A stretch of 59,921 nucleotides of DNA from a virus (Duplodnaviria; Caudoviricetes). Within the stretch, counting starts at the first letter, position 1, and every line of letters begins with the position of its first letter. The stretch is taken from the IMG/VR virus record IMGVR_UViG_3300037071_000511, positions 1 to 59,921 of that record, one strand, 5' to 3'. The position numbers and the translations under genes were made by a program. This document shows positions 7,121 to 36,440 of the stretch, one piece after another. The notes beneath the pieces were generated by a model. That model searched no databases. It was given only the letters and a program-made list of their open reading frames with translations, and had not been told where the DNA came from.

Positions 7121-9541
7121 TCATGCTGCGGTCTTCTTCTTGGAACCACCGGCCGAGACGTAACCGCCCGAGCCTTTCGGCACCTCGCCGCGCGCCCGGG
7201 CCGCCTCCGCATTGCGCTGCTCGATCGCCACCTCGCTCGCGAAAATGCGCTCTTTCGACTGGTGATCCATCTGCTTGCCAGCCAGCATCGCCTCCAGTTC
7301 CTGCAGGCTCATGTTGAGCTTGGCCGCCGTCTGGTTCATCTGGCTGTCGTAGTTCAGCTTGGCGATCTTCTCGCGCGAAGCGTTGGCCTGATTGGCCAGC
7401 GCCACCTGCATCTCCATCCTGCGAGCTTCGACTTCGGCCTTGGCCTGCTCTTGCGCTGCCGCTGCCTGTGCCGCCGCGTCGGCCTCGCTCTGCTGCGCCG
7501 CTGCCGCCAGCACTGCGTCGATCTCGTCGTCGGACAGCATCACCTCGTCGGCCGGGATCATGTAGCTCTGGAATATCTTGCGGAGCAGTTCGCGGTTGCG
7601 CAGCATCGGACCAAAGATCGGATGCCCGCCTAGCTGGATGGCGATCACCATCAGGTTCTGCGCCTGCATCTCACGCATGAGCAGGACGGAACTGCCGCGC
7701 GCGTCAACCTCGTAATCGCCCTTGATTTCGGGCTTCTCGTTGAACTGCATGTTCCAGTCGTAGGCCCGCCGGATGTCGGGCGTGGTGACGTCGTCATCGA
7801 AATTCTTGACGATCGCCCGGAACACCGTGTTGGCCGAGTTGTGCAGGAGCGCCATGCCGGTCGCCGTCTGCTGCATCTGGTTCGCGCCCACCTCGCCCAT
7901 CTGACCCTGAATGATCTGCGGCACCGCCGACATCGTGTCGATGAACTGGCTGCACAGCATGATGATGTTGGTCAGTTCCTCCTGCCGGGTTTCGACGTGG
8001 AATAGCTGGAACGGCGGGTTCTCCTTCTGGATGCCGTTCTTGGCAATCCAAATCTTGCGCGGCTTGAGCCGATAGTCGCCGTCTTCCGGCTCGATGTTCT
8101 GCGTGTCGATGATGATCTGCGGGCCGCTCGACACCCCGGCGTTGTCCATCATGGCCCGGAACGCGCCATTCATCGCCGACTGCGGATCGCGGATGATCGC
8201 GGGCATGCCGTAGCCAAAGATCGAGGCTTCGTCCTTGACCAGATTGAACACCGAATAGATGCACTCGCCGCTGTCGTAGGGGTACATCGCGAACTTGAGA
8301 ATCTCGCCCTGACAGAACCAGATGCAGGCATTGACCGAGGTCAGCGGGTCAACCTCTTCCACCTGCTTCAGCGCCTCGTCGGCGATCCCGGTGACGGTCG
8401 TGTCCCGGCTCATCAGCATCGACAGCGCGATGTCGCGCATGTCCTCTGGTTCGAGCGGGCCGTAGTACTCGAACACATGGTAGAGGTCGCCGGTCACCTG
8501 CTGGGTGGCGGCGCGGATGTTGCGCAGTTGCGCAAGGTAGGCTGGGGCCGAGGTCGACGGTGCCAGTTGCAGCAACCGGCGGATCGCATCCTTGTCGAAT
8601 CCATCGAGATGCTGAAGCTCGCGCAGCCGCTTGCGGTTCAGCAAATGGCGCTCGAAGGTGCCGCTCGATTCCTCGATGCAGGTAGAGTCCATGTCGGGGA
8701 AGAAGCCCCAGATGTCGACGTAGCGGTAGGCTGGCTGCGAGCCGGTCGAGACGTCGAGCTTGTGCTCGCCGGTCTGCTGGTCCTGCTTCCAGCCGCGCCG
8801 CACCTTGTCGCCGGTCACCGGGCCCTTGGTCACCCCGGTGCCGAGCTTGACCGTGCAATCGATCTGTTGGCGCTTGACGGTCTGGTAGCGGCATTCCGTC
8901 AACTGGTCATCGATCTCCTTCTCCATCAGGTCGGCGCGCTTGCGGCCTTCCTCCAACCGGGCGTTGAGCACCGAGGCCGCTTGCTTGGCTTCGTCGGCCT
9001 GCTGCTGCGCGGCAGCGGCCTGCTGCTGCATGCCAGCCACCTGTTCCGGCGGGACCGGCGCTTGCGGCGGTTGCCCGGCCTGCGGCGGTGCCGCGGCCTG
9101 ATCGGCCTGTGCCTGCGCCTGTGAAGCCTGCTCCTGCTTCTGCCGGAAATCGGCCGCTGCCTTTTCCGCGCTTTCAGCCAGCGTCGGAACCGGCGTGGGA
9201 CTGATGCCCCAGTTCTTGTCGTCGGTCGGAAACAGGAGGTCTTTCAGCCGCGCCGCCAGCGCATCGGATTTGGGTCGGGTCATGTTGATGAACAGGCCCG
9301 AGCGCTGCTCATCGAACAGCAACTTGGCGGTCACCTCGTCATAGCGGCCATGATACTGCTCAAGGTCTGCGATCCAGCGAGTTTCGAGCGAGGTGCGCTT
9401 GCCTATCCGGCTGGTCACCTCCGCTTCCATGCGGCCGACGATCTCTTTCAGCCGGTCTTTCGATGGCGGCTTTCGATCGGGCATGGATTGCGGCATTTGC
9501 TGCCCTTGCTGCGGCGGATTCATTACCATCAGGTCGGCCAT
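7121..9541 (-). CDS. Portal protein
   Basis: 806 aa; LFP.D.NW, GTGV.KGP, FFPD and G.G.P...RD.Q motifs; C-terminal coiled coil. Confidence 0.88.
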   Translation of the reverse strand: MADLMVMNPPQQGQQMPQSMPDRKPPSKDRLKEIVGRMEAEVTSRIGKRTSLETRWIADLEQYHGRYDEVTAKLLFDEQRSGLFINMTRPKSDALAARLKDLLFPTDDKNWGISPTPVPTLAESAEKAAADFRQKQEQASQAQAQADQAAAPPQAGQPPQAPVPPEQVAGMQQQAAAAQQQADEAKQAASVLNARLEEGRKRADLMEKEIDDQLTECRYQTVKRQQIDCTVKLGTGVTKGPVTGDKVRRGWKQDQQTGEHKLDVSTGSQPAYRYVDIWGFFPDMDSTCIEESSGTFERHLLNRKRLRELQHLDGFDKDAIRRLLQLAPSTSAPAYLAQLRNIRAATQQVTGDLYHVFEYYGPLEPEDMRDIALSMLMSRDTTVTGIADEALKQVEEVDPLTSVNACIWFCQGEILKFAMYPYDSGECIYSVFNLVKDEASIFGYGMPAIIRDPQSAMNGAFRAMMDNAGVSSGPQIIIDTQNIEPEDGDYRLKPRKIWIAKNGIQKENPPFQLFHVETRQEELTNIIMLCSQFIDTMSAVPQIIQGQMGEVGANQMQQTATGMALLHNSANTVFRAIVKNFDDDVTTPDIRRAYDWNMQFNEKPEIKGDYEVDARGSSVLLMREMQAQNLMVIAIQLGGHPIFGPMLRNRELLRKIFQSYMIPADEVMLSDDEIDAVLAAAAQQSEADAAAQAAAAQEQAKAEVEARRMEMQVALANQANASREKIAKLNYDSQMNQTAAKLNMSLQELEAMLAGKQMDHQSKERIFASEVAIEQRNAEAARARGEVPKGSGGYVSAGGSKKKTAA

Positions 9542-9542
9542 C

Positions 9543-10295
9543 TCAGTACCCTGCTCTCTTGTCTGCGAGGCCTATGCCTGCCCCGCCTTGCCTGCCCTTG
9601 GGTGACGGCAACCCAGCCACCCGTTCCCATGTGCGCCAGAGGTAGCGCATGCAATCCATCAGGTGATCGGCCTGCCCATCCACGATCTTTCCGCGCTCGT
9701 CGCGCTGGTACACCCGGTACTCAGCCTTGAAGCTCTGCAGCGTCGAGAAAATCTTCAACTGCCCGAGCGCCAGCGCCTGCCAGCACGCGATCAACCCGGC
9801 CTCCAGTTCGTTGTTGGCGTCGATCAGGATCAGGCCGAGCGATTGATATTCGGCCTTCAACTGCTTGCCATCCTTCTGGCTCGACCCTTTGGCGGCCGGA
9901 TCGATCGCGCCCCTGATCCACTCACCCCGGGTCTTGATGGCGGTGGCGTGGACGACCGGCAGTTGCTGGCCTTTGTAGTGCTCGCTGTAGAGGTAGATCG
10001 TGCCGTCGACCGGGTTCTGCGCGCCCCACAGCGCGGCCGTCCGGTTCCAGCCGACATCGAGCGCGTAGCCCTTCTTCCAGCCAAACGGGATGGCGAACGG
10101 CTTGACCTCGATGTCGCTGATGGGGATCGGGTAGATCACCCCCGAACCCATCGTCGGCTCGCCCTTCGAGCGCGCGTCCCGCAGGTATTCCGGCGTCGAG
10201 TCGAGCAGTTCCTGCTTGGTCTTCTCGTCCAGATGCGGGACGCTGTCCCACCCGGCCTGCACGACGTACCGGGATGGAGAAACCTCGCCCATCAT
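9543..10295 (-). CDS. terL: Terminase large subunit, C-terminal nuclease half (P22-like)
   Basis: AGWDSVPHL, ARSKGEP..GSG.IYP, ALDVGW and DHLMDCMRY RNase H-fold motifs; ATG at 10295 overlaps the upstream TGA. Confidence 0.88.
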   Translation of the reverse strand: MMGEVSPSRYVVQAGWDSVPHLDEKTKQELLDSTPEYLRDARSKGEPTMGSGVIYPIPISDIEVKPFAIPFGWKKGYALDVGWNRTAALWGAQNPVDGTIYLYSEHYKGQQLPVVHATAIKTRGEWIRGAIDPAAKGSSQKDGKQLKAEYQSLGLILIDANNELEAGLIACWQALALGQLKIFSTLQSFKAEYRVYQRDERGKIVDGQADHLMDCMRYLWRTWERVAGLPSPKGRQGGAGIGLADKRAGY

Positions 10296-10507
10296 CAGGT
10301 TATCCGCGGCAGGTGCAGGCCGCCTCCGCTTCCCACCAAATCCAGCAAGAGCAGGATCACGATGATACATAGTACAACTATGGCCGCCACCTTCAGTATC
10401 TTCTGCGGCGGCTCTGGGATGAAGCTGTCCACTACGTACACGAATAAGTAGTACAAGATTCCGATAATCAGCAGGTAGATTATGAGCGTTATGATTGCGC
10501 CTATCAT
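10295..10507 (-). CDS. Small two-TM membrane protein (holin candidate)
   Basis: Two hydrophobic segments joined by IPEPPQK; AAGGAG RBS. Confidence 0.7.
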   Translation of the reverse strand: MIGAIITLIIYLLIIGILYYLFVYVVDSFIPEPPQKILKVAAIVVLCIIVILLLLDLVGSGGGLHLPRIT

Positions 10508-10523
10508 AGTACAGTCTCCTTCG

Positions 10524-11270
10524 CTAGTTGCCCATCCAGTTCGACATGGTCTTCATCATGCCCTCGCGCTGGTAGGGAAGACTGACGTGCGGGACATACG
10601 GATTGCTGCCAATGTCACAGACCATTTGAAGGCCTACGACCATAACAGACACATGGGTCTTGACCGAAATCCCGCCGGGCAGGGCGGTCGCAATGGTCAT
10701 CCCGGGCATGGCCGTAATGGTGGCGCTCACGCCTGCCCCAGACGTTGCCGTGCCAGCCGTGATCGTCATACCCGGGACGGCCGCGATCGTCGTGTTGGCC
10801 TTGCCGACGACCGTAACGGTGCCCGCCGTGATCGTCGCCAGATTGGTCGCGGCGAAGGCACCGCTCACGGTCAGGACATTGACGGTGCCTGCGGTCATCG
10901 TCAGCAGGTTGGTGGTCGCCGAGACAACCGCCTTGCCCTGCACCGTGACATTGCCGACTGAGATCAGGGCGAACGAGGTCGCGGCCGACACCGCAACGCC
11001 GGTCCCGGTGGTGACCGTTTCGTCGCCGATCGAGATCGTCAGGAGATTGGTCGTGGCGTTGACGGTGGCCGTGCCGGAAACCGTGACATTGCCAACCGTG
11101 GTTGTCAGCAGGTTGGTGGTGGCGTTGACCGTGACGCGCTGGGGAATGATGACCGTGCCAGCCGTCATCGTCAGCAGGTTGCCGGTAGCGTTGACGGTGA
11201 CGCTGGTGACATCCCACAGGCTGGGGTCGGTCGCCCACGTACCTACCGCACTGTCCCAGTCGTCAGCCAT
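10524..11270 (-). CDS. Thr/Val-rich repeat virion protein
   Basis: Repeated (V)NATTNLLT-type units of about 22 aa, shared with the upstream gene. Confidence 0.65.
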   Translation of the reverse strand: MADDWDSAVGTWATDPSLWDVTSVTVNATGNLLTMTAGTVIIPQRVTVNATTNLLTTTVGNVTVSGTATVNATTNLLTISIGDETVTTGTGVAVSAATSFALISVGNVTVQGKAVVSATTNLLTMTAGTVNVLTVSGAFAATNLATITAGTVTVVGKANTTIAAVPGMTITAGTATSGAGVSATITAMPGMTIATALPGGISVKTHVSVMVVGLQMVCDIGSNPYVPHVSLPYQREGMMKTMSNWMGN

Positions 11271-11273
11271 AGG

Positions 11274-14048
11274 TCACGTCCATGCGCTGCCGCTCCAAGT
11301 CTTCGCCGGTTTAGTCACCCATGCGCTGCCGCTCCATACCTTGGTGGGTCGCTGGACCCATGCGCTGCCGTCCCACACGCCTACCGTGCCTGCTGCTGCC
11401 ACCACCCCAGTATCCACCGTGACCGTGCCAACGGTAGATGTGGCCAGATTGGTGGCGGCGTTGACGTTGGCCTTGCCGACAACCGACCCGTTGCCGATCG
11501 AGGTCGTGGCCAGATTGGTGGCGGCGTTGACGTTGGCCTTGCCGACGATCGTCGGCGTGCTCGTCGCCATCGTCGCCAGATTGGTGGTCGCCGAAACGTT
11601 GGCCTTGCCGACAACCGTCTCGTCGCCGCCGGTAATGGTGGCAAGGTTGGTGGTGGCCGAGACTACGGCTTTGCCGACAACCGTCTCATCGCCAATCGAG
11701 GTGGACAACAGGTTGGTGGCAGCGTCGACAACCGCCTTGCCGACAACCGTTTCGTCGCCCACCGAGACGGTGAGGAGATTGGTGGTGGCGTTGGCCGTGG
11801 CGTTGACCGCACCCGTCGTCGGAGCCGCCGACTTATAGGGATGGCCTGATGGCAGTGCGGTGACGTGGGTGGTGACGCCGAGAATCCCGTCCCACTTCCA
11901 CGCGAGATAGCCCGAAACCTTGTCTTGGATGTCCTGCGACATGCCCGCCGTCATGAAGACGAACTCGCGAGCCGTGCCGAAGCCTTGGCCGCCCGCCGTT
12001 CCGTAGTTCATCAGGGCAGGATTGGCGTCGGGAGTGAAGGTTTCCCCTACTTCGTCAAGGGGAGCATTCCCATCCCGGCCGATCTTGATGCCCGTAGCAT
12101 TGGGGCCTGAGAAGTAAATCTGACCATCAGCAGACGGCCACGTCAGCGTGCCAGCCTGAAAGAATCCACCACCGCCACTGTAGGTGCCTAGATTGTTGGT
12201 GCCAGTTTCGAGCAGAACGTGGTGATAGCTGCCAGCCTGATTGGCGAGGAGGGTGCGATAGCTGCCAGCGGCGTTGGGCTTGCCTGCAAATGCCAAGTCG
12301 AAATACGCAGACGGGAGCGTTGGCATTTGGATGTATAGGTTACTGCCACTCGTCGCATTGGCGATGTAAACGCCATCGGAATTGACCGACAATGTGGTGG
12401 TGCCTGCTGGCGTCCCGTGCCGGGCGTTGCCGCTCTTGTCACGCCACTGGGTGAGGAACCCTCCCGACTGGGAAATCGTGGAAGCGTCCGCGAAATCGTA
12501 CCAGACAATGAGATCGCTTCCGATATCAGCCGGTGTCCACAGCGCACCGCCGCCCGTGGTGACCGTCTCATTGCCGAGAGAGAGGGTCAGCAGGTTGGTT
12601 AGCGCATTGACATTGGCCTTGCCGACAACGGTTGTGCCGGTGCCGACTGTCGTGGTCAGTAGATTGGTGGTGGCGTTGACCGTGACGTTGACGCCACCGG
12701 TCGTGACGGTGACAGTGCCAACCGCAGTCGTGGCCAGATTGGTCGTGGCGTTGACGGTAACGCCGCCACTGGCACTCTCGCCCATCCACGACTTGAAGCC
12801 GGATGGAACGGTCTGTGTGAAATTAGCTAGTCTGGTGCGGACGGTGGCAGCGACACCACTCGTCAGAGCCGATATAAAAACCAGATGATAAACGCCATCA
12901 ACTAACGATGATGTGTCTAATCCTCCTGTGTCTGTTGCCGGATCAGCAGTTCCACTGTTATTCCAGAGGCCATTGTTCTTACGGAACCAGATCAGGTCCG
13001 CCCCAGCATTCCATGCCATGCAGGCAATGTCTGCTGTTGCAAAAGTCCCTAACGCTGCGAGTGAAGTCCCACCCTTAAGCGTAACAGCCCCGTTACCTGC
13101 CGCAGTAAATACGTCCGTAGTCGTGGTAACAGAAGAGCTAGCAAGTGATATTCCCCACTTATTCCCGGTATTATGTACGGTGTTCACAAATTCGGCGTAG
13201 TATTTACCCGCTGCGGGTGATGTGCGCCCCTGTGTAGTTCGTATCCCACCAGACGACGACGATGTGCTGGTTGCTCTCGTATCGCTGACGGATACTGTGA
13301 TATTGGATGACTTGTCACCTGCACTCCATGCATCGGTGGTAAGTAATACATCCCTGAACCCGCCAAGGTTCACGCCCTGAGCGGAAGAGATTGAGGCTGT
13401 CGTGCTGATGGTGCCGGTCGCACCCGCAGTTGTCTTAACTGCATCAAAGATGGCGAGCGAGGTCTGTGCGCCATTCAGCGTGAGGCTATCGGCCCGCTCT
13501 ATCCACGTTGTCGTAGAGGGCGCTGTCGTAGTGTCAGTTGCGCCGCTGGCAGTCGAAGGAGCATTGGCAGATTTGAATGCAGAGAAGGTTGATTCTTGCC
13601 CTCCACATGCCATCCCAACCAGCAAATCATCGTTACTTAATGTCGTACCGCCAGTCATGGTGACTGCGGTGATGGCAGGCCCCGTAGTCGTCCAATTGAG
13701 AAGATAACCGAACAGAGTGTTCGTACCGCGATAAGCAACAATTCGTCCCAGAGCGACACTGATGCCAGCCGGATGTGTAAAGGTCAGGGCAGGAGCCGAT
13801 GACCCACGAACGATAAAGGCCATACAGCTAGAAGGAGCGCCGCTGTTCGACGTTAGGGTGTTGCCGCTGTTCTGGTTAGCAATTTGCGTCCAACCGCTAG
13901 GCAGCGTTATTGCGGTACCCGAGCTAGTCCGCGATGAAATGCACGCGACCAGCAGATCGCCAGCCGCGACACCAGCCGGTTCCGTCAGCGTATGGGTGGT
14001 GGTCGCAGTCTCAACGACTGATGAGACGCCGACGAATGACCATGCCAT
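11274..14048 (-). CDS. Large fibre/adhesin-like protein with SPRY-like and LamG-like domains and 22-aa repeats
   Basis: W...DKSSNIT..GKYYAEF (SPRY-like); WTPA.I...WYD.AD.STI...W.DKSGN (LamG-like); LPSGHPYK; VVGKANVNAATNL repeats. Confidence 0.7.
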   Translation of the reverse strand: MAWSFVGVSSVVETATTTHTLTEPAGVAAGDLLVACISSRTSSGTAITLPSGWTQIANQNSGNTLTSNSGAPSSCMAFIVRGSSAPALTFTHPAGISVALGRIVAYRGTNTLFGYLLNWTTTGPAITAVTMTGGTTLSNDDLLVGMACGGQESTFSAFKSANAPSTASGATDTTTAPSTTTWIERADSLTLNGAQTSLAIFDAVKTTAGATGTISTTASISSAQGVNLGGFRDVLLTTDAWSAGDKSSNITVSVSDTRATSTSSSSGGIRTTQGRTSPAAGKYYAEFVNTVHNTGNKWGISLASSSVTTTTDVFTAAGNGAVTLKGGTSLAALGTFATADIACMAWNAGADLIWFRKNNGLWNNSGTADPATDTGGLDTSSLVDGVYHLVFISALTSGVAATVRTRLANFTQTVPSGFKSWMGESASGGVTVNATTNLATTAVGTVTVTTGGVNVTVNATTNLLTTTVGTGTTVVGKANVNALTNLLTLSLGNETVTTGGGALWTPADIGSDLIVWYDFADASTISQSGGFLTQWRDKSGNARHGTPAGTTTLSVNSDGVYIANATSGSNLYIQMPTLPSAYFDLAFAGKPNAAGSYRTLLANQAGSYHHVLLETGTNNLGTYSGGGGFFQAGTLTWPSADGQIYFSGPNATGIKIGRDGNAPLDEVGETFTPDANPALMNYGTAGGQGFGTAREFVFMTAGMSQDIQDKVSGYLAWKWDGILGVTTHVTALPSGHPYKSAAPTTGAVNATANATTNLLTVSVGDETVVGKAVVDAATNLLSTSIGDETVVGKAVVSATTNLATITGGDETVVGKANVSATTNLATMATSTPTIVGKANVNAATNLATTSIGNGSVVGKANVNAATNLATSTVGTVTVDTGVVAAAGTVGVWDGSAWVQRPTKVWSGSAWVTKPAKTWSGSAWT

Positions 14049-14056
14049 CGGTCACC

Positions 14057-16555
14057 TCACGTCGTGTCGATCCAGATATCGCCCACTGAGGGAGAGGATG
14101 GCTCAGTCGATGAGACGGTGATCGTCGGCACCGGTTCCCAAACGGTGTTCCTGCGCGCGTAGAACACGTCGTCATCCGGTGCTTCGGCTATGCCACGAAA
14201 CTCAATGACGACGGCGGAACCATAAGCAGTGAGTGGGGCCAGACCTGTCGATACGGGACTGATAGCCCAGTCGTCATACGTGCCGTGATTGGTATGGTTC
14301 GACTCGATGTCGAGCATGTACCATTTCGACAGATCGTCAGTGTTGCGAATGACAATCCGCGAACCCTTTTTTAGGCTCGCCCGCGTGTAGTATCTGACGG
14401 TGGTGCCATTCTTGTCCTTGTGATGGATGAACATCGTGGTGGCGCTGCCGATGCTGGCGTCATCGAACGTGATCTCGCCATCGACTGTCGGTGCAGCGCC
14501 GCTGTCATTGTAGGTGAAATCGGTCGGCATTCCGCCGCCGCCGACTACCTGCCACGACCCGTCACCGAGACGCCCATAAGCCTCACCATCATCAGGGGGC
14601 AGACCGAATGTCGGCCAGACGGCTGGTGCTCCGTACTCGATTATAGGCGAGATGAGTGGCACTCCGCTGTCTGCCATGACGGTCAGCGGACACTCATCTT
14701 CCACCGTTCCCGAATATCCCTCGGACGTTTCTATTATTGATCCAGATGGGTTGGTCGTCGGGATCGCTAGGCCAAGTACGTTGTCAGAATCCTCGATCCA
14801 TATGGAAACGATCCACACCATATATTGACCGTAGGCAACCATATTCGTGCCAGGAAAGTACGCTTCGAACCAACCAGTACCATTTACTGAATAATCGATC
14901 TGATCAATGATGATGGCTGGGGTGGTCTTGTTGAAGAGATATATCTTTGCGTTACCGTCCGGTGTTCCGTTCGACTGGATGTAGAACCGTGCGCCGACGA
15001 TCTTACACACATCGCCGTAGTAAACGCTCTGCGCATACATCGTGGCGGGACTGCCGCTGTCAGTAGCCGATTCCTCAAGGTATTCAGTCGTGAGAACGCT
15101 GTATGGCTTGGGGCCGTAGAGTATCTGGTTGGCGGTATCGACGTAATAATCGCCCATCTGACCAGTGCCCGAGTCAGGGGGGTATTCACCATTCAAGATC
15201 GCCGGAACCTTATCCCAAGACTCATTTCTTCGGGAATATAAATACTCATCGTTTGGCGCTTCCTCGACGCCTGCTACACCAGTCCCTATCTCTGTCCAAC
15301 CGCTGTACTGCCGTCCGTAGATCAGACCATCTTGTGGCGCATCAGGCAGACCACCAAGAGCATTGATTTGTACAAGCACAGGTTCCGCGATCAGGTTGTC
15401 ACCACCCATTGCATAGTACTCAATGGACCAACTGCCGTATGTGGTGTGACTTGTCATGTCACTGGTGAGTAGGAACGAGAACCATCTATGAGGTGTGTCT
15501 TTGTTCTGGACAAACACCTGCCGACCAGTACGCAATGACGCTGACAACACTCTCCAGATGTCGTTCCCAGTGACATCGGTGAAATGGATCATGATCTCAG
15601 TGGCAAGTTCCTGATTGATGCCCACCTCATTGAGTGTGACTTCTCCTGCTGATGGCTCAGCACCACTGTCTACAAATGTGTAATTCGAGTGTGCGGTTGT
15701 GACTTCCCATCCCGCATCTCTGCGGATGTATGCAAACCCATCACTTGGTGCATCACTGACACCACCAGTCGGTAGCGTCTGCCACGTCTTGTCACCACGC
15801 CAGTACTGCGATGTCGTGCCGGGAGAGACAAAATCCTCCTTGCCCTCCGTCGAACTCTCAACAAACGCAACCGTGGCGATGTCATGTGCCGTGCCGGGCC
15901 ATGTCGGTGTCGGTGCCTGCGGAGAGCCGGTGAACGACGGCGAATCGAGCGGTGCGTATGTCGTCTCGATCGTGTCGATCTGCGACTGCAGGAACGTGTC
16001 CGTGCCCTGCAGCGCAACGATGTTCGTGGTGTGCGTCCCGGTTGTGGAGGTCAGCAGAGCGAGATCGGTCGTCAGGTTGACAATTGTGGACTGGCCCTGC
16101 GTGCCCGTATGGGCGGCGCGATTGAGATAGTAGCTGCCTGTCTGTGCATCCAGCAGATCGGCGTCGAGGTTGCTGCCCGCACCATCGACAGTCAACAATT
16201 TCGTCAGTATCTGCGCGGCCGTGTCAGACCCGCCGAACGGGCCATAGTCCACGCCGTTTACGTGGCCGTAGAAGCCATCGGTCTTCGCCCAGATGTCGCC
16301 GTCGTTGGGGGAGGTCGGCTTTGCACCGGGCGGAACGTTGAGCCCGGCAACGCCCGTGGTCGAGGCCGTCGTGACCAGCTTGCCCACCACCGTCGTCGGC
16401 TTGTTGAGGGTGAGCGTGGTCGAGGTGTCGGCGAACGCCGTCTTCAAGGCGGTCTTGACCGTGCGGATATGGTCGTCGCCCTCGCTGCGAGGATCAGTGC
16501 CGGTCGGCCATGCCTCGTTCAGCCCTGAAATCAGGGAGGTGGATTCCAGACCCAT
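14057..16555 (-). CDS. Tail fibre-like protein with multiple foldon-like motifs
   Basis: N-terminal EGDDHIR..K, VDGAGSNLDADLLD, APLDSPSFTG.P.APT and five AP.DG..Y.R...W motifs. Confidence 0.75.
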   Translation of the reverse strand: MGLESTSLISGLNEAWPTGTDPRSEGDDHIRTVKTALKTAFADTSTTLTLNKPTTVVGKLVTTASTTGVAGLNVPPGAKPTSPNDGDIWAKTDGFYGHVNGVDYGPFGGSDTAAQILTKLLTVDGAGSNLDADLLDAQTGSYYLNRAAHTGTQGQSTIVNLTTDLALLTSTTGTHTTNIVALQGTDTFLQSQIDTIETTYAPLDSPSFTGSPQAPTPTWPGTAHDIATVAFVESSTEGKEDFVSPGTTSQYWRGDKTWQTLPTGGVSDAPSDGFAYIRRDAGWEVTTAHSNYTFVDSGAEPSAGEVTLNEVGINQELATEIMIHFTDVTGNDIWRVLSASLRTGRQVFVQNKDTPHRWFSFLLTSDMTSHTTYGSWSIEYYAMGGDNLIAEPVLVQINALGGLPDAPQDGLIYGRQYSGWTEIGTGVAGVEEAPNDEYLYSRRNESWDKVPAILNGEYPPDSGTGQMGDYYVDTANQILYGPKPYSVLTTEYLEESATDSGSPATMYAQSVYYGDVCKIVGARFYIQSNGTPDGNAKIYLFNKTTPAIIIDQIDYSVNGTGWFEAYFPGTNMVAYGQYMVWIVSIWIEDSDNVLGLAIPTTNPSGSIIETSEGYSGTVEDECPLTVMADSGVPLISPIIEYGAPAVWPTFGLPPDDGEAYGRLGDGSWQVVGGGGMPTDFTYNDSGAAPTVDGEITFDDASIGSATTMFIHHKDKNGTTVRYYTRASLKKGSRIVIRNTDDLSKWYMLDIESNHTNHGTYDDWAISPVSTGLAPLTAYGSAVVIEFRGIAEAPDDDVFYARRNTVWEPVPTITVSSTEPSSPSVGDIWIDTT

Positions 16556-17011
16556 TCAGGCAATCCGGATGATCGCGTTCGTCGCATCGGCCGCAGGCAT
16601 GACCACCGTGAAGTCACCCGCGCTCGATGACTTGTCCGAGACGAAGTCCAGCACCAGCACCGATCGGTTGGCGCTGGTGGTGTTGTAAATCAGGGCCCCG
16701 CGCGCCGTGATCGTGCTCGACGTCCACACCGGGTCGGTCGGGCCGAAGTCGGTGATCGCCGTGACGCCGGATGGATTCGTCGGTGTCACGTTGACCAGCG
16801 CTGTGCCGCCGGTCGTGTAGCCGCTGCCGTTTGCCACCTCGCCTGAGATGTTGTTGGTGCCGCCGCTGTAGTGGTCGGTTGTGGCCGAGATCGTGGACGC
16901 GCTGGTGACGAGCGCGATCTTGAAGGCGTGCCCGGTGGATACCGTGAAGTTGTGCAGCGCCGTCATCAGTTCCACCTTGAAGGTGGTGCATATCGCTTGG
17001 GTCGGGGCCAT
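16556..17011 (-). CDS. Virion structural protein
   Basis: QAIC..FK.EL, FKIAL, EV..G.GYT.GG and ARGALIY motifs of a common phage structural family. Confidence 0.7.
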   Translation of the reverse strand: MAPTQAICTTFKVELMTALHNFTVSTGHAFKIALVTSASTISATTDHYSGGTNNISGEVANGSGYTTGGTALVNVTPTNPSGVTAITDFGPTDPVWTSSTITARGALIYNTTSANRSVLVLDFVSDKSSSAGDFTVVMPAADATNAIIRIA

Positions 17012-17023
17012 CCGTCGTCCTTC

Positions 17024-17266
17024 CTATTTGCGGTAGATGCGATCGCTCTCGATCGCTGCCTTAATCCCCGCAAGAATGATCTGGTGCATCTGAACCTGAT
17101 ACGACAGCACCTGCTCCTTGAGCGGCTCTGGGATGTTGTCGCCGACATACATCAGCCGGTCCATGATGCGCTCCGCGAAGAACTCCGGTGGTCGACCGCC
17201 ATTGCTCGTCGTCACCACCTTGACGGACCCGACGCTCATAGTGGTCCCGTCGAACTGCAGCACCAT
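17024..17266 (-). CDS. Hypothetical protein
   Basis: 80 aa, coupled to the upstream gene. Confidence 0.6.
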   Translation of the reverse strand: MVLQFDGTTMSVGSVKVVTTSNGGRPPEFFAERIMDRLMYVGDNIPEPLKEQVLSYQVQMHQIILAGIKAAIESDRIYRK

Positions 17267-17817
17267 CAGGGTATCAATTCCCGCATCGCATTGATCCGCT
17301 TGTCGACGTCGGCCCCGCGCTTCATCACCTCGGCATCATACGCCGCGAGCTTGCCCCGCTCGTCCTCCAGCGCCTGCAGCTTGGTATCGAGGTCCGCATG
17401 CCGCGCGTCCAGTTCCATCTCGCGATCGTTGAGCGCCGCCTCGCGCACGTCCAGCGCCCGCTGCAGATCGCCCATCTCCTTGGCCACCGCGCCGCGCTCG
17501 GCCGCGGCCTTGGTCACCGTGGCCGCCTGCTCATGCTCCTGCCGGGCGAGCACCTTCTCGCGCGCGTCGAGCGCTACGTTCAGGTCATCCACCTTGCCCT
17601 GCGCCTTCTCGATGTCGGCCTCTCGGTTGTCCAGTTCGAGCGCCAACGCATCGAGTTCCGCCCGCTTCAGCGCCAGCGCCTCGATCGACACCTCGTTGGC
17701 CTCGGTCGCCTTCTGCAGTTGCTCGATGCGCTCCTTGGTGCCCTTCGGATCGCCGACGATGCCGAGCAGGCTGGTGAAGGGATCGGGCCCGGAGGCCCCG
17801 CGTGAACCGCTCATCAT
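17266..17817 (-). CDS. Coiled-coil protein
   Basis: Heptad-rich 183 aa; AGGAG RBS. Confidence 0.65.
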   Translation of the reverse strand: MMSGSRGASGPDPFTSLLGIVGDPKGTKERIEQLQKATEANEVSIEALALKRAELDALALELDNREADIEKAQGKVDDLNVALDAREKVLARQEHEQAATVTKAAAERGAVAKEMGDLQRALDVREAALNDREMELDARHADLDTKLQALEDERGKLAAYDAEVMKRGADVDKRINAMRELIP

Positions 17818-17819
17818 GG

Positions 17820-18125
17820 CTAAACTCCTAAAATCGCAGCGACCCGGAAGCCCCTGCCAGCCGGAATGCCGACATAGCGCGTTTCACCCGCAGCCAGTCG
17901 CTGCTTGGACGTGGTCGCGGTCGGGCTGGTGCCCCATGCGAGGCACGCCGCCTCTTGGGCGTGAACCATCACGAAGGCGGTCTGGGCGTTGAAGACGGCG
18001 GATTGCGCGGTCGAGGAGGTCAGCGTCATCGCCTGTTCGTTGACACTGGGCTCCATGCCTGCAGCGATGAAGTTCGAGCCAATATCGCGCGCAAGATCGC
18101 GGTATTCCGTCAGGAAAAGCGGCAT
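17820..18125 (-). CDS. Small virion-like protein, first gene of the putative late operon
   Basis: 101 aa, beta-rich; follows a hairpin leader. Confidence 0.6.
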   Translation of the reverse strand: MPLFLTEYRDLARDIGSNFIAAGMEPSVNEQAMTLTSSTAQSAVFNAQTAFVMVHAQEAACLAWGTSPTATTSKQRLAAGETRYVGIPAGRGFRVAAILGV

Positions 18126-18142
18126 GGCATCCCTCAGATAAG

Positions 18143-18173
18143 CAAAATGCCCGCCGGGTGAGGGGCGGGCATG
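18143..18173 (-). terminator. Terminator/attenuator-like hairpin
   Basis: Minus strand ATGCCCGCC-N8-GGCGGGCAT then TTTGCTT. Confidence 0.55.
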
Positions 18174-18238
18174 GACGTAGTGTCGAAGGCCGTTGACGCG
18201 AGAATATCCCCCAACGGCTACGAAAACACAACAGGTGC

Positions 18239-18634
18239 CTATTTGGCCTCGGCCTGCCGCAACCTGTTGATCAGCCGCAGAAGCATCGCCCAGTTCTCGA
18301 TGCGGCGGTCGTTGGCCATCTTCTCGATCATGTCGACCTCCTCGTTGGTCGCCACATGGGCGTCGAGCTTGGCTGGCTTGGCGCTGGCCACGATCTTGTC
18401 CAGCATCTCGTCAGCTTCATTCGGCCCGAGCACCCTGTAGCTCTCGGCGTTGGCGACAGTCGGGCCATCGCGCAGCGCCTCGTAGGCTTCCTTGGTCAGC
18501 GGCTTGTCGCCCTTGAACACCGCGCCCTTCGAGGTGATCACCTTGGGCTCGGGCGTCACGCCCTCCTCGATCTCTTCGCCGAGATCAGGCACGTAGCGCG
18601 GGATGCCCGTGTCCGGGTCATACTTCATTGGCAT
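18239..18634 (-). CDS. Hypothetical protein
   Basis: 131 aa; GGAG RBS overlaps a GTAGTAC box. Confidence 0.65.
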   Translation of the reverse strand: MPMKYDPDTGIPRYVPDLGEEIEEGVTPEPKVITSKGAVFKGDKPLTKEAYEALRDGPTVANAESYRVLGPNEADEMLDKIVASAKPAKLDAHVATNEEVDMIEKMANDRRIENWAMLLRLINRLRQAEAK

Positions 18635-18668
18635 TTTGTACTACTCCTGTTCCGATTGATCAGTCCCC

Positions 18669-19013
18669 CTACTGATCAGAAATCCGGGTTCGTTCTCCCC
18701 GCAAGTCCCCGCGCCGCATCCGCAAGTCCTGATCGATGCTGGTCGTCAGCGTCACGGCCCCGATCTTCACCCGGCATTCCATCCTCGTTATCTGCATGTC
18801 GTCCTCGATCGGCCCGCCTGTCACCGTCGTGACCATCTCGCCGGGGTCGGCGTCCAGAAAGCCCCGGTAGAACCGCGTGAAGGTGAACAGGAACATCCCG
18901 ATCTGCTCGACCATCATGGGCGCGTCAAGCTGGGCCGCCAAGCTCTCCGCGATTGCCTCGCACCCGATCGAGGTGCGAGGGGCCAGTTCCGACGTGACGG
19001 TGAACTCGGTCAC
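18669..19013 (-). CDS. Hypothetical protein
   Basis: GTG start coupled by GTGA overlap. Confidence 0.5.
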   Translation of the reverse strand: MTEFTVTSELAPRTSIGCEAIAESLAAQLDAPMMVEQIGMFLFTFTRFYRGFLDADPGEMVTTVTGGPIEDDMQITRMECRVKIGAVTLTTSIDQDLRMRRGDLRGERTRISDQ

Positions 19014-19207
19014 TCGACGTTGATGCGCACCAACAGCGCCATCCCGCCGGTATCGAAGTCCCATGCCCGCTTGCGCACCACGTACATCTTGCCGTCGATG
19101 ACGACCTGATCGCCCACCGCCGGGTGGGAACTCATGCCGCAGCTTTTGACAAAGCCACTCTCGGTGAAGAAGTCGGTCGGGATCGCGGCCGGTGCGCTCT
19201 CACTCAT
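19010..19207 (-). CDS. Hypothetical protein
   Basis: MSESAP start overlapping the upstream gene end. Confidence 0.5.
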   Translation of the reverse strand: MSESAPAAIPTDFFTESGFVKSCGMSSHPAVGDQVVIDGKMYVVRKRAWDFDTGGMALLVRINVE

Positions 19208-19547
19208 GGGCCAGCCTCTCGCGCAGCGCGTAGCCCTCCAGCGCCCATAGCTGCCGGATCGCATCCTCCCGGGCGAACTTCTGCCCGAGCACCGGATCGA
19301 AGTTCCCGGCGTCGGCGGGCGCGCTCTTGCCCACGACAGCAAAGCCATTCGTCATCGTCATCACGCAGATCGTCATGTGCGGAATGGCCGAGGGGTGCAT
19401 GTACTCCTCGTCTTCGATCTTGGAGAGCATCGAGTCGAGCGTCACCCGGTTGGGCGTCTTCTGCACCGCGGCGCTCTCGGCGTCGGTCATCTCAATCGAT
19501 GACAGGTCGGTGCGTGCCTTGCGCTGTTCGTCGGTTTCGGTGGCCAT
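19200..19547 (-). CDS. N4 gp49/Sf6 gp66 family protein
   Basis: RVT...I, TIC.....NGF.V.G.SA.....NFD...G...A...A...LW.LEGY signature. Confidence 0.85.
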   Translation of the reverse strand: MATETDEQRKARTDLSSIEMTDAESAAVQKTPNRVTLDSMLSKIEDEEYMHPSAIPHMTICVMTMTNGFAVVGKSAPADAGNFDPVLGQKFAREDAIRQLWALEGYALRERLAHE

Positions 19548-19571
19548 CTTAGGTTCTCCACGGTTATGGGC

Positions 19572-19805
19572 TCATGCCCGTTTGATCAGGTCTTCGATGA
19601 GGTGGACGAGCTTCCTCGCCTCTTCCTGCGACAGCTTGAAGTCGATCGCGATCTCATCCGTGCCGCCTGCCAGTGTCACCACGATCAATCCATCCTTCAG
19701 TCTGGCCGAGATGTCCACCCTGCCTCGCATCGGTTTCCCCTTCGCCAGTGTGATCGGATGCTTGATCTTGCCCATCTGCGAGATGCGCGACGGGTTCTTA
19801 GTCAC
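19572..19805 (-). CDS. Hypothetical protein
   Basis: 77 aa in a chain of overlapping minus-strand genes. Confidence 0.5.
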   Translation of the reverse strand: MTKNPSRISQMGKIKHPITLAKGKPMRGRVDISARLKDGLIVVTLAGGTDEIAIDFKLSQEEARKLVHLIEDLIKRA

Positions 19806-20049
19806 CGTTCAGCCCCTCATGGAAGCGATCGCGCTGCTCCCGCTTGCGCGCCTCGGCCCGCTCGATCTCCTCGGCCTCGCTCACCGCGCTGAACTCGCGT
19901 GCCCGGTGCCGCTGTGGCAGGTGATCCTCCTTGCGATCGCCGTGCCAGCCCAGCCCGGTGGCGTTCTCGTCCTTCGGCGTCGGCGGATGGTAGTCCTTGT
20001 CGTGCCAGTCGCCGAACAGGCGGGCGATCACGTTCCAGAACCAGTTCAT
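19798..20049 (-). CDS. Hypothetical protein
   Basis: 83 aa; AAGGGGG RBS. Confidence 0.5.
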   Translation of the reverse strand: MNWFWNVIARLFGDWHDKDYHPPTPKDENATGLGWHGDRKEDHLPQRHRAREFSAVSEAEEIERAEARKREQRDRFHEGLNGD

Positions 20050-20141
20050 GCCTGCCCCCTTGGTGAGGCTCCCGGCCGCCCGGTCGTCTTAGCGGGGGGC
20101 TGCGAATGGCCGAGAGCGGATGGGGAGCCTCGGCGCGGACC

Positions 20142-20237
20142 CTACCAGAACAGCACCCACACCACAAAGCCCAGCGCCAGCCAGAACAGCACGCTCGCCA
20201 ACAACCAGCCCCATAGGCTGCGCGAGGTCAGGCTCAT
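20142..20237 (-). CDS. Tiny membrane peptide
   Basis: MSLTSRSLWGWLLASVLFWLALGFVVWVLFW; TGATG coupling. Confidence 0.45.
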   Translation of the reverse strand: MSLTSRSLWGWLLASVLFWLALGFVVWVLFW

Positions 20238-20737
20238 CAAAACACCACATCCGCTATCAGGTCGTCCATCGTCAGCAGCGCACCATTCGGCACCCAGTAG
20301 GCCGGGCGTCCATTCGGCTTGGCCGGGTTGCACTCGCCGTACCAGTCCTGCCGCTTGATGTCGCGCCCCTGCATCCAGCCCGCCAGCGTCACGATCGGCA
20401 GCTTCTTGGCGACGACATGCGCCAGAATGTACCGCAGATCGTCCGGGTCGTCGTCGTGCGCCCAGAGCCGCTTGTAGGCCGCGTCGGTCGAGCGCACCTC
20501 GAACCTACCGCCGACGTCGATCACCCCAAACTCGGTGGCGTGCCAGTACACGTTGAAGTGCTTGGCCACCGCCATCTCCCCGATACAGCCCATCCAGTGC
20601 TTGTCGAGCCCGAGCCCGCCATCCTGCTCCGCACCGTGCGCGTCCTCGCGTCGACGCTGGATGTTGGCCACGCTACGCTGCAGCGCCGCCTCACCTGCCC
20701 GGTAGACCTCGCCCCATGACAGGTGAACCTCGATCAT
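20237..20737 (-). CDS. Hypothetical protein, possible PD-(D/E)xK nuclease fold
   Basis: G..GE.AVAK, D-V...EVRST pattern. Confidence 0.55.
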   Translation of the reverse strand: MIEVHLSWGEVYRAGEAALQRSVANIQRRREDAHGAEQDGGLGLDKHWMGCIGEMAVAKHFNVYWHATEFGVIDVGGRFEVRSTDAAYKRLWAHDDDPDDLRYILAHVVAKKLPIVTLAGWMQGRDIKRQDWYGECNPAKPNGRPAYWVPNGALLTMDDLIADVVF

Positions 20738-20943
20738 CGCTTGAGGCTCCACCCCTTCCACCACCAATGCCCGGCATCGAACTCGTAATGGCCGCGATCG
20801 ATCTCGCGCCATTCCAGTGGCGGCACATCCTGCCGGATGACCGGCCGCTCCATCCGCGCCATCTGGATGACCGGCTCGATCGACGCGAGGCGCAGGCCCT
20901 TCTTCGGCCCGCCGATTGCATAGCCTACGTACCCGCTAGCCAT
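20734..20943 (-). CDS. Hypothetical protein
   Basis: MASGYVG start, coupled to neighbours. Confidence 0.5.
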   Translation of the reverse strand: MASGYVGYAIGGPKKGLRLASIEPVIQMARMERPVIRQDVPPLEWREIDRGHYEFDAGHWWWKGWSLKR

Positions 20944-21137
20944 CACCTGATCCTCGTCGCCTTCTCCCACATCTGCAGCAACTCGCCATTCAGCGTCTCG
21001 GCCACCACCAGCGCCGTCGCGCGGTTGCCGAAGCCCTCGACGCTGCGCTCCGTGCCGAGCGGCATCTTGCGCCACACATGCCAGCGCCGCTCGTACAGGA
21101 TCGGCTGCCAGAGCGGGATGTCGATCGTGTGCTTCAC
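20943..21137 (-). CDS. Hypothetical protein
   Basis: GTG start via GTGA overlap. Confidence 0.45.
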   Translation of the reverse strand: MKHTIDIPLWQPILYERRWHVWRKMPLGTERSVEGFGNRATALVVAETLNGELLQMWEKATRIR

Positions 21138-21457
21138 TGCAGCGGGCGATGGCCGTTGAGTGACGTCACGTTGGCGGCATTCTTGACGGCCTGCGCGTCG
21201 GCTCGCTTCTTGGCTTCCTCCTCCTCGAACTTGCGCTTCTCGATGCGCCATTCCAGTTCGTTCTTCACCGTCCTGATGTCCTGCTCCAAGCAGACCCTCT
21301 GGTGCGCAAGCTCAAGGTCGGCCAGTTCCCGCTTCATGTGCTTGACATCCATCCCGTCGATCTGATCGCTGGCCTCCCAGTCCGTGCCGAACTCATCCGC
21401 CCACTCGCGGTCACGCTGCCTGTTAGCTGCCCGGATCATGTCTGCCAACCTGTTCAT
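21134..21457 (-). CDS. Hypothetical coiled-coil protein
   Basis: GGAGG RBS right after the terL-N stop. Confidence 0.6.
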   Translation of the reverse strand: MNRLADMIRAANRQRDREWADEFGTDWEASDQIDGMDVKHMKRELADLELAHQRVCLEQDIRTVKNELEWRIEKRKFEEEEAKKRADAQAVKNAANVTSLNGHRPLQ

Positions 21458-21468
21458 CGTCACCTCCA

Positions 21469-22266
21469 TCACATGTGCCCCAGTGTCGCTCGATCGGTCG
21501 CAAGCTGGAATTGTAGTACGGTTTCGCTCATGCCTTCAAGTGGCGTAAAGGTCAGGAGTAGTACGCCTTGCGTCGTCATCAGGCGGATCAGGCACTCGCC
21601 GTACACGTCCATTGGGCATTCCTCATCGAGCCAGATGACGTGCTGGCTGGTGCCCTCGAACGAGCCGCGGCCCTGCTCGTAGCTCTTCATGCCGAGCGTG
21701 CTCCAGCCGCCGCTGACGTGGCGCACCTTGACCGTGTCGGTCAGGTCATCGACGCCGCGCTTCCATGTGACCCGGCCAATGAGGTTGCCGGGGACCATGC
21801 CGGTGCCCTGCAAGACCTTGCGTAGGCCGTCGTAAGCCACGGGGCCGAGCAGGGAGGCTTGGACGATGTCGCGGGTGGTTTCGTTGCGTCGTCCGCATGC
21901 CCAAGCCCTAACAGGGTGAGCAAAGCGCTTACCGCTCCACCACGCAGGATATAGACCTGTGAGGTGCGCCGTAAGCTCGAAGGAGCCGCATGTAGTCTTC
22001 CCGACGCGATTGGCTGCGAGAAAACATCGCTCCCTATACTGCGCCCCGGCTCCAAAGAACTCGATATGCTTAGGATAACGATCGCGGGCATAGATGAGTA
22101 TGGAACCGTCATTGCCCACGCGATCCGCGTCGGGGAATAGATCGAAGTATAGACGCTGCTTAAGCTTCTCGACCAGCGTCGACGTGAGCGCCGCCAGACG
22201 CGCCTGCGTCGGCAGCGACAGTCGCTGGACTTGATCCGCGTCCGGTAGGTCAATTAGCTCGCTCAT
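21469..22266 (-). CDS. terL: Terminase large subunit, N-terminal ATPase half (P22-like)
   Basis: Walker A AANRVGKT, HLTGLYP.WW.G.RF, Walker B VIWLDEE and coupling motif TFTP, then a stop shortly after. Confidence 0.9.
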   Translation of the reverse strand: MSELIDLPDADQVQRLSLPTQARLAALTSTLVEKLKQRLYFDLFPDADRVGNDGSILIYARDRYPKHIEFFGAGAQYRERCFLAANRVGKTTCGSFELTAHLTGLYPAWWSGKRFAHPVRAWACGRRNETTRDIVQASLLGPVAYDGLRKVLQGTGMVPGNLIGRVTWKRGVDDLTDTVKVRHVSGGWSTLGMKSYEQGRGSFEGTSQHVIWLDEECPMDVYGECLIRLMTTQGVLLLTFTPLEGMSETVLQFQLATDRATLGHM

Positions 22267-22501
22267 GGCGACTGCTGATGATGCCATCGAGATATCCCGC
22301 ATCGCTGGCTTCCCGGCACAGCATCCTCATCAGGTTGCGGAACTTGGGATCGCTCCAGCTTACGGACACGCCGAGCAGGACCACGAAGTCATCCGGCACC
22401 TCGCCCATGTCGTGCTCCGGGCAGCGCACGATCGGCGTGCCATCGCGGATGATGAGCAGCATGTCGCTGTCGATTGGCAAGATCGCCTCGCCCTCCGACA
22501 C
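22250..22501 (-). CDS. Hypothetical protein between terS and terL-N
   Basis: 83-aa ORF overlapping the terL-N start. Confidence 0.5.
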   Translation of the reverse strand: MSEGEAILPIDSDMLLIIRDGTPIVRCPEHDMGEVPDDFVVLLGVSVSWSDPKFRNLMRMLCREASDAGYLDGIISSRHERAN

Positions 22502-22512
22502 ATGGTCGACGC

Positions 22513-22944
22513 TCAGTGCTGGACGCCCGGCTTCAGGCTGCGGGCCTCTGCGGTGATTGCGGCGATCTCGAATCGGAGTTCCTCCTCGGTCATCGTGGCA
22601 TAGCTGTGTGTTACGTTAACCGTGGATTTCTCAACAAACAAGCCGTAGAGCTTCGCCTTGGAGTTCGAGGCAGCATGCGCCGCGCTCATTTGCTTCATCT
22701 CGATCGCCAACCTGCGATCCTCATCGAACTGCGCGGCCATCGACTCGACCGTCACCTCGACCTTGTTGAGCGCGGCGATGTGCAGTTCCTTCAGGCGATT
22801 CTGGACCCCGACATTTCTTGACAACCGCGAGGCCGCGCCGGGATCAGGCTTGTAGCCAGCGAGCCTGTATGCCTCCTCCTGCGACTTCCCCTTGAAGCGC
22901 AACTGGCAGAACTTTTCGTGCTTAGGATTCGACAGGGCGGTCAA
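22513..22944 (-). CDS. terS: Terminase small subunit
   Basis: L.NPKHEKFC...G.SQ..AY..AGY.....ASRL HTH and AKL.GLF; upstream of terL-N. Confidence 0.8.
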   Translation of the reverse strand: MTALSNPKHEKFCQLRFKGKSQEEAYRLAGYKPDPGAASRLSRNVGVQNRLKELHIAALNKVEVTVESMAAQFDEDRRLAIEMKQMSAAHAASNSKAKLYGLFVEKSTVNVTHSYATMTEEELRFEIAAITAEARSLKPGVQH

Positions 22945-23485: not shown

Positions 23486-23490
23486 GATGG

Positions 23491-23742
23491 CTAGACCTGT
23501 TCATGTGCTCTAACGAGGGCGGCTGTAGCGTCCTTCCATTTCCTATCCTCCCGCTCATATCCGATTTCGGGCAGACCATCGCGCAGAACAGCGATGTAGA
23601 CCACCCGTGGATCGATTGCTGCGAACACGCCAATGCAAATCTGCATGTTGGGTGTGCTGCCGTCCTTCACATCGAGCAGGCCAGCGTTTTCGGTAAAGTC
23701 GTAGCGGATGATGGCAGCGAAGTGATCTTGGTTATCGTTCAT
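23491..23742 (-). CDS. Hypothetical protein
   Basis: GGAGGA RBS before MNDNQ. Confidence 0.55.
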   Translation of the reverse strand: MNDNQDHFAAIIRYDFTENAGLLDVKDGSTPNMQICIGVFAAIDPRVVYIAVLRDGLPEIGYEREDRKWKDATAALVRAHEQV

Positions 23743-36338: not shown

Positions 36339-36341
36339 ACG

Positions 36342-36372
36342 ATTGACAACTCTGGAATTTCGTAGTTTTAAA
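36342..36372 (+). promoter_or_regulatory. Probable promoter for the DndB-like gene
   Basis: TTGACA, then TTTCGTAGT box and AT-rich -10 region; spacing imperfect. Confidence 0.5.
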
Positions 36373-36440
36373 TGATGACGCCGCCCATCCGGCCAAGGAT
36401 TGAGGGCGGCGCTTTTAACGGTCAGCAAGAGGAGAATCTC

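Follow-up and report, generated by a model that had tools for sequence, protein, structure and literature searches.

The large terminase gene, terL, is a hallmark of tailed phages and serves as a single-gene marker for their detection, for completeness estimates and for phylogeny. Models of the packaging motor assume one chain with two tethered domains. Interrupted forms of the gene have nevertheless been described, and those in the sources cited here fall into a few types. In herpes simplex virus 1 UL15, the ATPase and nuclease exons are parted by an intron of ~3.5 kb and the mRNA is spliced (PMC13595911); some phage terL genes, such as those of the Jug phages and Mic1, are interrupted by group I introns (PMC12880540) or by inteins (PMC7156551); and in 'fractured' genes with split inteins, other genes can lie between the pieces (PMC2677866). 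Here we analyse the terL locus of a soil phage, represented by a linear viral contig of 59,921 bases (IMG/VR record IMGVR_UViG_3300037071_000511), the whole of which is called the window below. Its terL is divided into two distant genes, TerL-N with the Walker motifs and TerL-C with the nuclease. Because neither half is complete alone, the sequence, together with a predicted complex, makes it probable that the large terminase is an obligate heterodimer of two chains. A literature search restricted to main texts, and thus outside the supplements that may house further cases, found only intron-, intein- and splicing-type splits and no account of a permanently two-chain terminase; PMC7824862 and 10.1101/672428 yielded nothing relevant to split terminases. 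The half-proteins themselves are already present in databases, and the two-chain reading of them was found in no publication searched.

Two half-genes of the large terminase

Both half-genes lie on the minus strand (Table 1) where an earlier sequence-only reading of this DNA had placed them, separated by 11,173 bases; the plus-strand translations are riddled with stop codons. The two activities are not joined on one polypeptide: each half is an open reading frame (ORF) with its own start and stop codon. Each half is present once in the window's contig and no full-length terL was found elsewhere in it; the record is rated 73% complete. The pair has the position of a packaging module, with a small terminase gene upstream of TerL-N and a portal gene directly downstream of TerL-C.

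TerL-N comprises 265 amino acids when read from 22266, or 277 if begun at the upstream ATG at 22302. It carries AANRVGKT, VIWLDEE and LTFTP, which are the Walker A motif, the Walker B motif with its catalytic glutamate and motif III of a P-loop ATPase, and its frame stops 23 codons past TFTP; GGAGGTGAcgATG stands immediately after this stop and opens the next ORF. TerL-N matches Pfam Terminase_6N (2e-15) and, nearly end to end, phrog_31467 (4e-81, positions 20-233 of 261), an N-only family of 261 positions annotated as of unknown function. Residues N86, R87, G89, K90, D214, E215, E216, F240 and P242 are invariant in 46 homologues. When solved structures were searched by sequence or profile, TerL-N gave only chance immunoglobulin matches (E ≥ 0.06).

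TerL-C has 250 amino acids, starts with MMGEVSPSRYVVQAGWDSVPHL and includes the motifs LDVG and DHLMD. Its matches are to the P22 nuclease domain 4DKW (7e-16; 6e-26 in a profile search), to residues 234-416 of the D6E TerL structure 5OE8 (9e-6) and to phrog_5653 'terminase large subunit' (6e-18), a C-only family of 199 positions. Among 47 homologues, W16, V19, P20, H21, R42, G45, D80, D132, D210, H211 and D214 are invariant, and by alignment D80, D132, D210 and D214 would be the catalytic acids of the nuclease. Alignments place the true start of TerL-C at 10295 and not at the upstream ATG at 10370, because in relative G001 a TAA interrupts the upstream extension and because homologues of 246-250 amino acids cover the query from its first residues; the start methionine is nearly invariant among them. 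The stop codon of a 70-amino-acid ORF (10507..10295) overlaps this start as TGATG, an arrangement typical for translational coupling, and the stop of TerL-C lies two bases from the portal start. The earlier claim that the nuclease half is coupled to a membrane-protein-like gene near the portal (9541..7121) agrees with this layout; the 70-amino-acid ORF has two hydrophobic stretches, and its membrane topology was judged by eye and not computed.

The cut falls within the ATPase domain

The Terminase_6N family is divided colinearly between both genes: positions 1-145 align with TerL-N, and 159-211 with window positions 10280..10122, at the start of TerL-C. Because the end of Terminase_6N maps to TerL-C and the nuclease match there begins only at about residue 47-48, the alignments place the cut within the ATPase domain and not at the border between ATPase and nuclease. 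Residues 1-47 of TerL-C are among the best-conserved of this protein in the 47 homologues. Beyond the conserved core, ~12 residues remain at the end of TerL-N, and TerL-C has ~7 before its conserved strand. The N tail and C head combined have just the length of one loop in the fused relative G017 (477 amino acids), which leaves no room for an intein.

Co-folding of the two chains, proposed as a check in the sequence-only reading, gave an interaction prediction score from aligned errors (ipSAE) of 0.77, compared with 0.07 for the best of three controls; 58 of 80 solved complexes attain this mark, as do 2 of 110 mismatched pairs. The runs share at least 78% of contacts, and the predicted local distance difference test score of the partner is at least 77. 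The whole predicted interface lies between TerL-C residues 3-48 and TerL-N residues 56-90 and 241-256, with the best pairs (TerL-N with TerL-C) at 79-9, 81-11, 83-13 and 85-15. SRYVVQAG of TerL-C is predicted to run parallel to RERCFLAA, the TerL-N strand entering the Walker A loop. The additional-strand catalytic-E (ASCE) fold has the strand order 5-1-4-3-2, and SRYVVQAG would be its strand 5. Residues 1-47 of TerL-C are predicted to complete the ATPase sheet.

These results alter two parts of the sequence-only reading while leaving its core, two separately encoded chains, in place: the halves have their own starts and stops across the clade, and no intron, intein or misassembly was found. 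Its description of an ATPase gene plus a nuclease gene is not supported, as TerL-C holds Terminase_6N positions 159-211 and completes the predicted ATPase sheet. Its suggestion that the split lets the phage delay DNA cleavage fares no better, TerL-N alone being without part of its own fold. With the end of the ATPase domain placed on TerL-C, where it completes the sheet in the predicted complex, TerL-N by itself is unlikely to be a full ATPase able to work ahead of the nuclease.

In the arrangement that we propose, TerL-N would contribute the greater part of the ASCE ATPase core, beginning with the Walker A strand and ending with motif III, and TerL-C would add, in its residues 1-47, the final strand and helix of the ATPase and then a P22-type nuclease. 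The chains would be translated separately and would join non-covalently through strand complementation. A cut made in an ancestor, in the loop that leads to the final ATPase strand, would have produced two coupled genes, and the space between them would later have been filled with cargo, ranging from nothing or one or two small genes in some phages to 5-11 kb in the subclade of the window. This order of events, with the split first and the cargo later, is one that we infer.

The split is shared by a clade of phages and prophages

Twenty-four related records, picked from 57 loci for their longer contigs, were examined. Fifteen carry the N and C parts in separate frames (G001-G014 and G020), seven have a single fused frame (G016-G019 and G021-G023, two of them with 857-880 amino acids) and two are unclear (G015 and G024). 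All five close relatives with both halves on one contig (G001-G005) are split, with gaps of ~8.7, 7.4, 11.4, 8.9 and 4.7 kb, as taken from match coordinates. With gaps of 4.7-11.4 kb in these five, the spacing in the window is ordinary for its subclade and is exceeded in one relative. The sequence-only reading had called a distance of 11.2 kb unusual; it is not unique to the window. At the amino-acid level, the N half is 74-86% and the C half 80-92% identical to those of G001-G005, and DNA identity over roughly the same spans is 70-83% and 76-82%, respectively. Because amino-acid identity is at least as high as DNA identity, the comparison points to purifying selection on both halves.

Among all relatives, the gap ranges from overlapping stop and start codons up to 11.4 kb. 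The N stop overlaps the C start in G011, which has terminal repeats and is rated 100% complete. One 117-amino-acid ORF fills the gap of G008, two small ORFs fill that of G006 and one that of G010, and the gaps of G012, G013 and G020 measure 2-3 kb. Each of four split proviruses, with completeness ratings of 95-98%, contains a single N gene, a single C gene and no full-length copy. In G005, TerL-C lies on the other side of the fibre gene, upstream of an ORF of 1014 amino acids that is probably this fibre gene, and a phrog_644-like gene abuts the portal; gene order in the group is fluid. Moreover, the N halves of G009 and G011 are 66-67% identical to that of the window and their C halves only 44%; recombination between the N and C parts may have given these halves separate histories.

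In a collection of 5.8 billion proteins, the best 120 homologues of the N half all have 236-278 amino acids and the best 120 of the C half all have 202-271. The named C-half homologues are mostly called 'hypothetical protein', and half-proteins of this family also stand as 'terminase large subunit domain-containing protein' at NCBI. Named sources of the half homologues include Hyphomicrobiaceae, Rhizobiaceae, Aminobacter, Mesorhizobium, Fulvimarina, Aureimonas and Roseovarius; among isolates, N-only or C-only genes occur for example in Aminobacter aganoensis, Fulvimarina endophytica and Aureimonas sp. Leaf454. Longer proteins with the nuclease family, that is, fused forms, are at most 65% identical to those of the window, and the closest 'long' forms are N halves that contain inteins and are without the nuclease family. 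Inteins (LAGLIDADG_3, Hint_2, Hom_end, Intein_splicing) occur inside the N half of many relatives, for example in proteins P0244-P0252 and records G015 and G022-G024, and some of these intein-bearing relatives are also without the nuclease part; inteins and the permanent split therefore coexist in the family. If a single origin is assumed, the split would be ancestral to a large clade of phages and prophages, whose named members are found in genomes of Hyphomicrobiales and Rhodobacterales.

Integrity of the locus and alternative explanations

The split is genuine and not an assembly error; the misassembly that would have undermined the sequence-only reading was not found at the junctions. Three near-identical soil runs (X1-X3) contain 98-99% of the sampled sequence words, with a summed contig depth of ~100-220; the source sample could be among them, which keeps them from being independent proof, and the comparison used assembled contigs and not raw reads, so that rare forms may have dropped out. 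Mismatch-free Logan contigs cross the TerL-N stop in all three runs (20142-21603, 20142-21592 and 20142-21531), and a contig of a fourth soil run covers 21428-21811. The junction at the TerL-C start is colinear in relatives from other metagenomes (G001 over 10836-9131, G002 over 10572-9126 and G003 over 10491-9788). The soil runs do hold several related strains, and their contigs pile up on the terL halves with many loose ends and small joints, which would favour a misassembly or strain chimera of a phage with a contiguous terL. Nevertheless, given the spanning contigs, the colinear relatives and the lack of any close fused relative among the 5.8 billion proteins, such an origin is extremely unlikely. 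It is also very improbable that the phage is defective or helper-dependent, with a decaying split terL or with a full-length copy in the unsampled part of the genome. Some relatives are proviruses and the incompleteness of the record would allow for such a copy, but the catalytic residues are invariant, amino-acid identity is high over many lineages, the summed contig depth in three soil runs is ~100-220, and near-complete relatives, one of them with terminal repeats, hold the split pair only.

The interrupted terL genes described in the literature found here are rejoined, and the halves could likewise be restored to one chain if the RNA were spliced (in cis or in trans), if a split intein joined the proteins or if the 11-kb insert were removed by programmed DNA excision. 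We consider this highly unlikely. Rfam, which covers curated families, gave 0 matches at E ≤ 1 on either strand of 8500-23500, so that no ribozyme family was found at the borders. No homing endonuclease, intein, recombinase or transposase was detected in 17 gap ORFs searched against Pfam and PHROGs or in three small ones searched against Pfam only, no maturase was found in the gap, and no intein, Hint or homing-endonuclease family was found in the halves. Ten gap ORFs of relatives likewise yielded no homing endonuclease or maturase; they matched no Pfam family and gave one weak PHROG match of unknown function. The ~12 and ~7 extra residues fall far from the intein lengths of 88-105 and 33-54 residues that the described split inteins need (PMC2677866), and the nearly invariant start methionine of TerL-C and the tight homologue lengths of 246-250 amino acids also argue for a chain that begins there. 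As for excision, no recombinase was found, the 20 largest of at least 60 direct-repeat families included no flanking repeat, and no joint linking the 21469 border to the 10295 border was found in contigs of the four soil runs, which can miss rare forms. A different possibility is that the halves are independent enzymes, with TerL-N translocating alone and TerL-C acting as a separately timed cutter made with the portal. The phi29 gp16 ATPase has no nuclease; in the window the halves occupy separate sections of the late region and a terminator-like hairpin intervenes, and TerL-C is coupled to a different upstream gene, beside the portal. This explanation is improbable, since TerL-C carries Terminase_6N positions 159-211 and its conserved first 47 residues form the whole predicted interface on its side. 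Moreover, because the half-genes of relatives overlap or nearly adjoin, being a few hundred bases apart, separate timing is not general to the split.

The obligate heterodimer remains the preferred explanation. That there are two ORFs, that both are conserved, that they are separate across the clade and that the searches returned no splicing signatures can be read directly from the DNA. Several points weigh against the heterodimer. As the record is rated 73% complete, the portion of this genome outside the contig could conceivably hold a second terL. None of the longest contigs listed for X1-X3 crosses 10295, the pieces ending at 9684 and resuming at 10367, and support for this junction comes from the colinear relatives. 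Short att-like repeats at the borders are possible, the inspection having covered the 20 largest direct-repeat families, and the single origin of the split is an assumption. Finally, the support consists of DNA sequence and a predicted complex, and two pieces cut from a known fold are apt to score well in such a prediction, which may partly draw on solved single-chain terminases.

Content of the gap

The positions of the packaging genes and of the intervening modules are given in Table 1. Approximately 18 minus-strand ORFs lie in the gap, some of them mutually overlapping, which gives a real gene number of roughly 16-19; the sequence-only count of about 19 same-strand genes was thus approximately right.

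Table 1 Features of the divided terL region in the window, in the order of the minus strand
Feature	Coordinates	Strand	Remarks
Small terminase gene (terS)	22513..22944	-	directly upstream of TerL-N; Pfam Terminase_2 4e-4 (below cut-off); phrog_51 terminase small subunit 8e-11
TerL-N, 265 amino acids	21469..22266	-	putative ATPase core with Walker A, Walker B and motif III; own stop codon
Variable cargo region 1, ~10 small ORFs	18240..21468	-	mostly of unknown function
Terminator-like hairpin, intergenic	18147..18172	-	9 pairs
Conserved block in the gap	16556..18125	-	genes of 101, 183, 80 and 151 (phrog_644) amino acids
Fibre module	10524..16555	-	genes of 832, 924 and 248 amino acids
70-amino-acid ORF	10295..10507	-	two hydrophobic stretches; within DNA matches of G001-G003
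TerL-C, 250 amino acids	9543..10295	-	residues 1-47 predicted ATPase end; from ~48 onward putative P22-type RNase H-like nuclease
Portal protein	7121..9541	-	phrog_332 5e-32; phrog_1216 portal 3e-7; directly downstream of TerL-C

DNA matches of the five close relatives over TerL-N end at or just before its stop codon, and the small ORFs that follow (21468-18240) have only short DNA matches to these relatives. Two of them could be assigned, one to the N4 gp49/Sf6 gp66 family (19547..19200, minus strand) and one to phrog_18407 (20812..20237, minus strand). The sequence-only reading had placed a terminator near 18143-18173, with which the halves might be transcribed separately. A hairpin is indeed present at 18172..18147, with seven G-C pairs, followed by TTTGCTTATC (TTTGCTT), and it is retained in both the minimum free energy and the centroid folds; its fold z-score is only -1.47, and terminator-like sites in the region are not in excess over shuffled sequences (6 observed, 8.3 expected), and the hairpin is at most a candidate boundary between two transcription units. 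Promoter-like sites show no excess either (3 observed, 3.8 expected).

The conserved block is included in a match of G001 to window positions 18696-16552 at 80% DNA identity, parts of which are also matched by G002-G005. Its 183-amino-acid protein has a long charged stretch and two sub-threshold Pfam hits, and its 151-amino-acid protein matches phrog_644 at 2.5e-18. The 101-amino-acid protein is 57% identical to an ORF product of G005 and 53% identical to that of the ORF directly after TerL-N in provirus G006; because of the latter, its gene seems to have been in the gap for a long time. The fibre genes and the small upstream ORFs would instead be later, exchangeable cargo. The fibre module is largely unalignable to relatives, and the G+C content at 12-16 kb is 0.545-0.563, compared with 0.59-0.66 elsewhere. 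The 832-amino-acid protein matches tail-fibre PHROGs and has a Fibritin_C-like motif at residues 263-284. The genes for the 924- and 248-amino-acid proteins have 66-nucleotide (22-amino-acid) repeats in common, with ~12 copies at 10790-12780 (families D1-D3); by eye, the repeat unit reads VNATTNLLT-like. In run X2, low-depth contigs join across 11202-16910 and 11340-14055, with short sides of 22-25 letters, and may come from co-occurring strains with other fibre cassettes. No similarity was found between the gap proteins of G012 and those of the window, and the gap ORFs of relatives had no Pfam match, so no common cargo function emerged.

It is conceivable, if rather unlikely, that the clade exploits the split: the half-genes would bracket a cargo slot whose fibre and accessory cassettes are swapped between co-infecting relatives, and only recombinants with matched N and C halves would package. 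Several observations hint in this direction. DNA similarity to G004 and G005 picks up again at the start of TerL-C or slightly within the gene, similarity to a contig of run X4 breaks off precisely at 10295, the gap content differs among relatives, the TerL-N matches end at the gene border, and the G+C content of the distal fibre region is foreign.

Other features of the window

A 187-amino-acid ORF just upstream of terS and outside the terL gap (22922-23485, minus strand) has a LEM-3-like GIY-YIG nuclease domain (3.5e-8) and may encode a free-standing homing-type endonuclease beside the packaging genes. A 3178-amino-acid ORF (48545-58081, minus strand) combines a ddrB-like ParB domain (1.7e-35) with a Zeta_toxin/AAA kinase-like domain (3.3e-15), and its product may be a polyvalent or injected protein. 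Adjacent Mom-family (2e-16) and DndB-like (3e-26) genes at 35424-37883 on the plus strand hint at DNA modification in this phage; RecT is encoded at 43613-44548.

Implications and comparison with known terminases

A motor free of the tether, with a defined contact of 47 residues, would be a ready system for studying communication between ATPase and nuclease. As most named C halves are called 'hypothetical protein', annotation pipelines may mis-annotate phages of this kind. The space inside an essential gene can turn into a slot for cargo or host-range genes and, if it is true that the chains must match, recombination between relatives would be constrained.

The families phrog_31467 and phrog_5653 represent the same proteins as the two halves described here, under uninformative database names. 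The herpesvirus TerL gene resembles that of the window in that its parts lie kilobases apart, but they are rejoined as one chain, whereas here both halves start and stop on their own and the searches revealed no splicing signal. Intron- and intein-interrupted terL genes likewise consist of several ORFs; they carry ribozymes, inteins or homing endonucleases, none of which was found at this locus, and they restore the protein or the mRNA. In Xanthomonas phage DES1, a cultured relative (OK624832.1, 31002-33335), terL is interrupted at another point, within the N part. Its order is a 119-amino-acid 'terminase family protein', a 166-amino-acid hypothetical ORF and a 399-amino-acid 'large terminase', and the break is probably an intron or endonuclease insertion. 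GenBank phages gave 418 hits, all below 60% identity, which cluster with contiguous forms like P22 gp2, and the four hits that were opened each have a single terL at this site: EBPR podovirus 1 (from the hit table), Chlorobiaceae CV-1-33, Rhizobium RHph_N2 and Pseudomonas UFV-P2. Among the closest described systems is the TerL of the P22 gp2 type (Terminase_6N plus Terminase_6C), which is alike in its Walker A, Walker B and motif III, in its RNase H-like nuclease, and in having terS upstream and the portal downstream. P22 gp2 is contiguous, whereas the terminase of the window phage is encoded as two chains, with the cut inside the ATPase domain.

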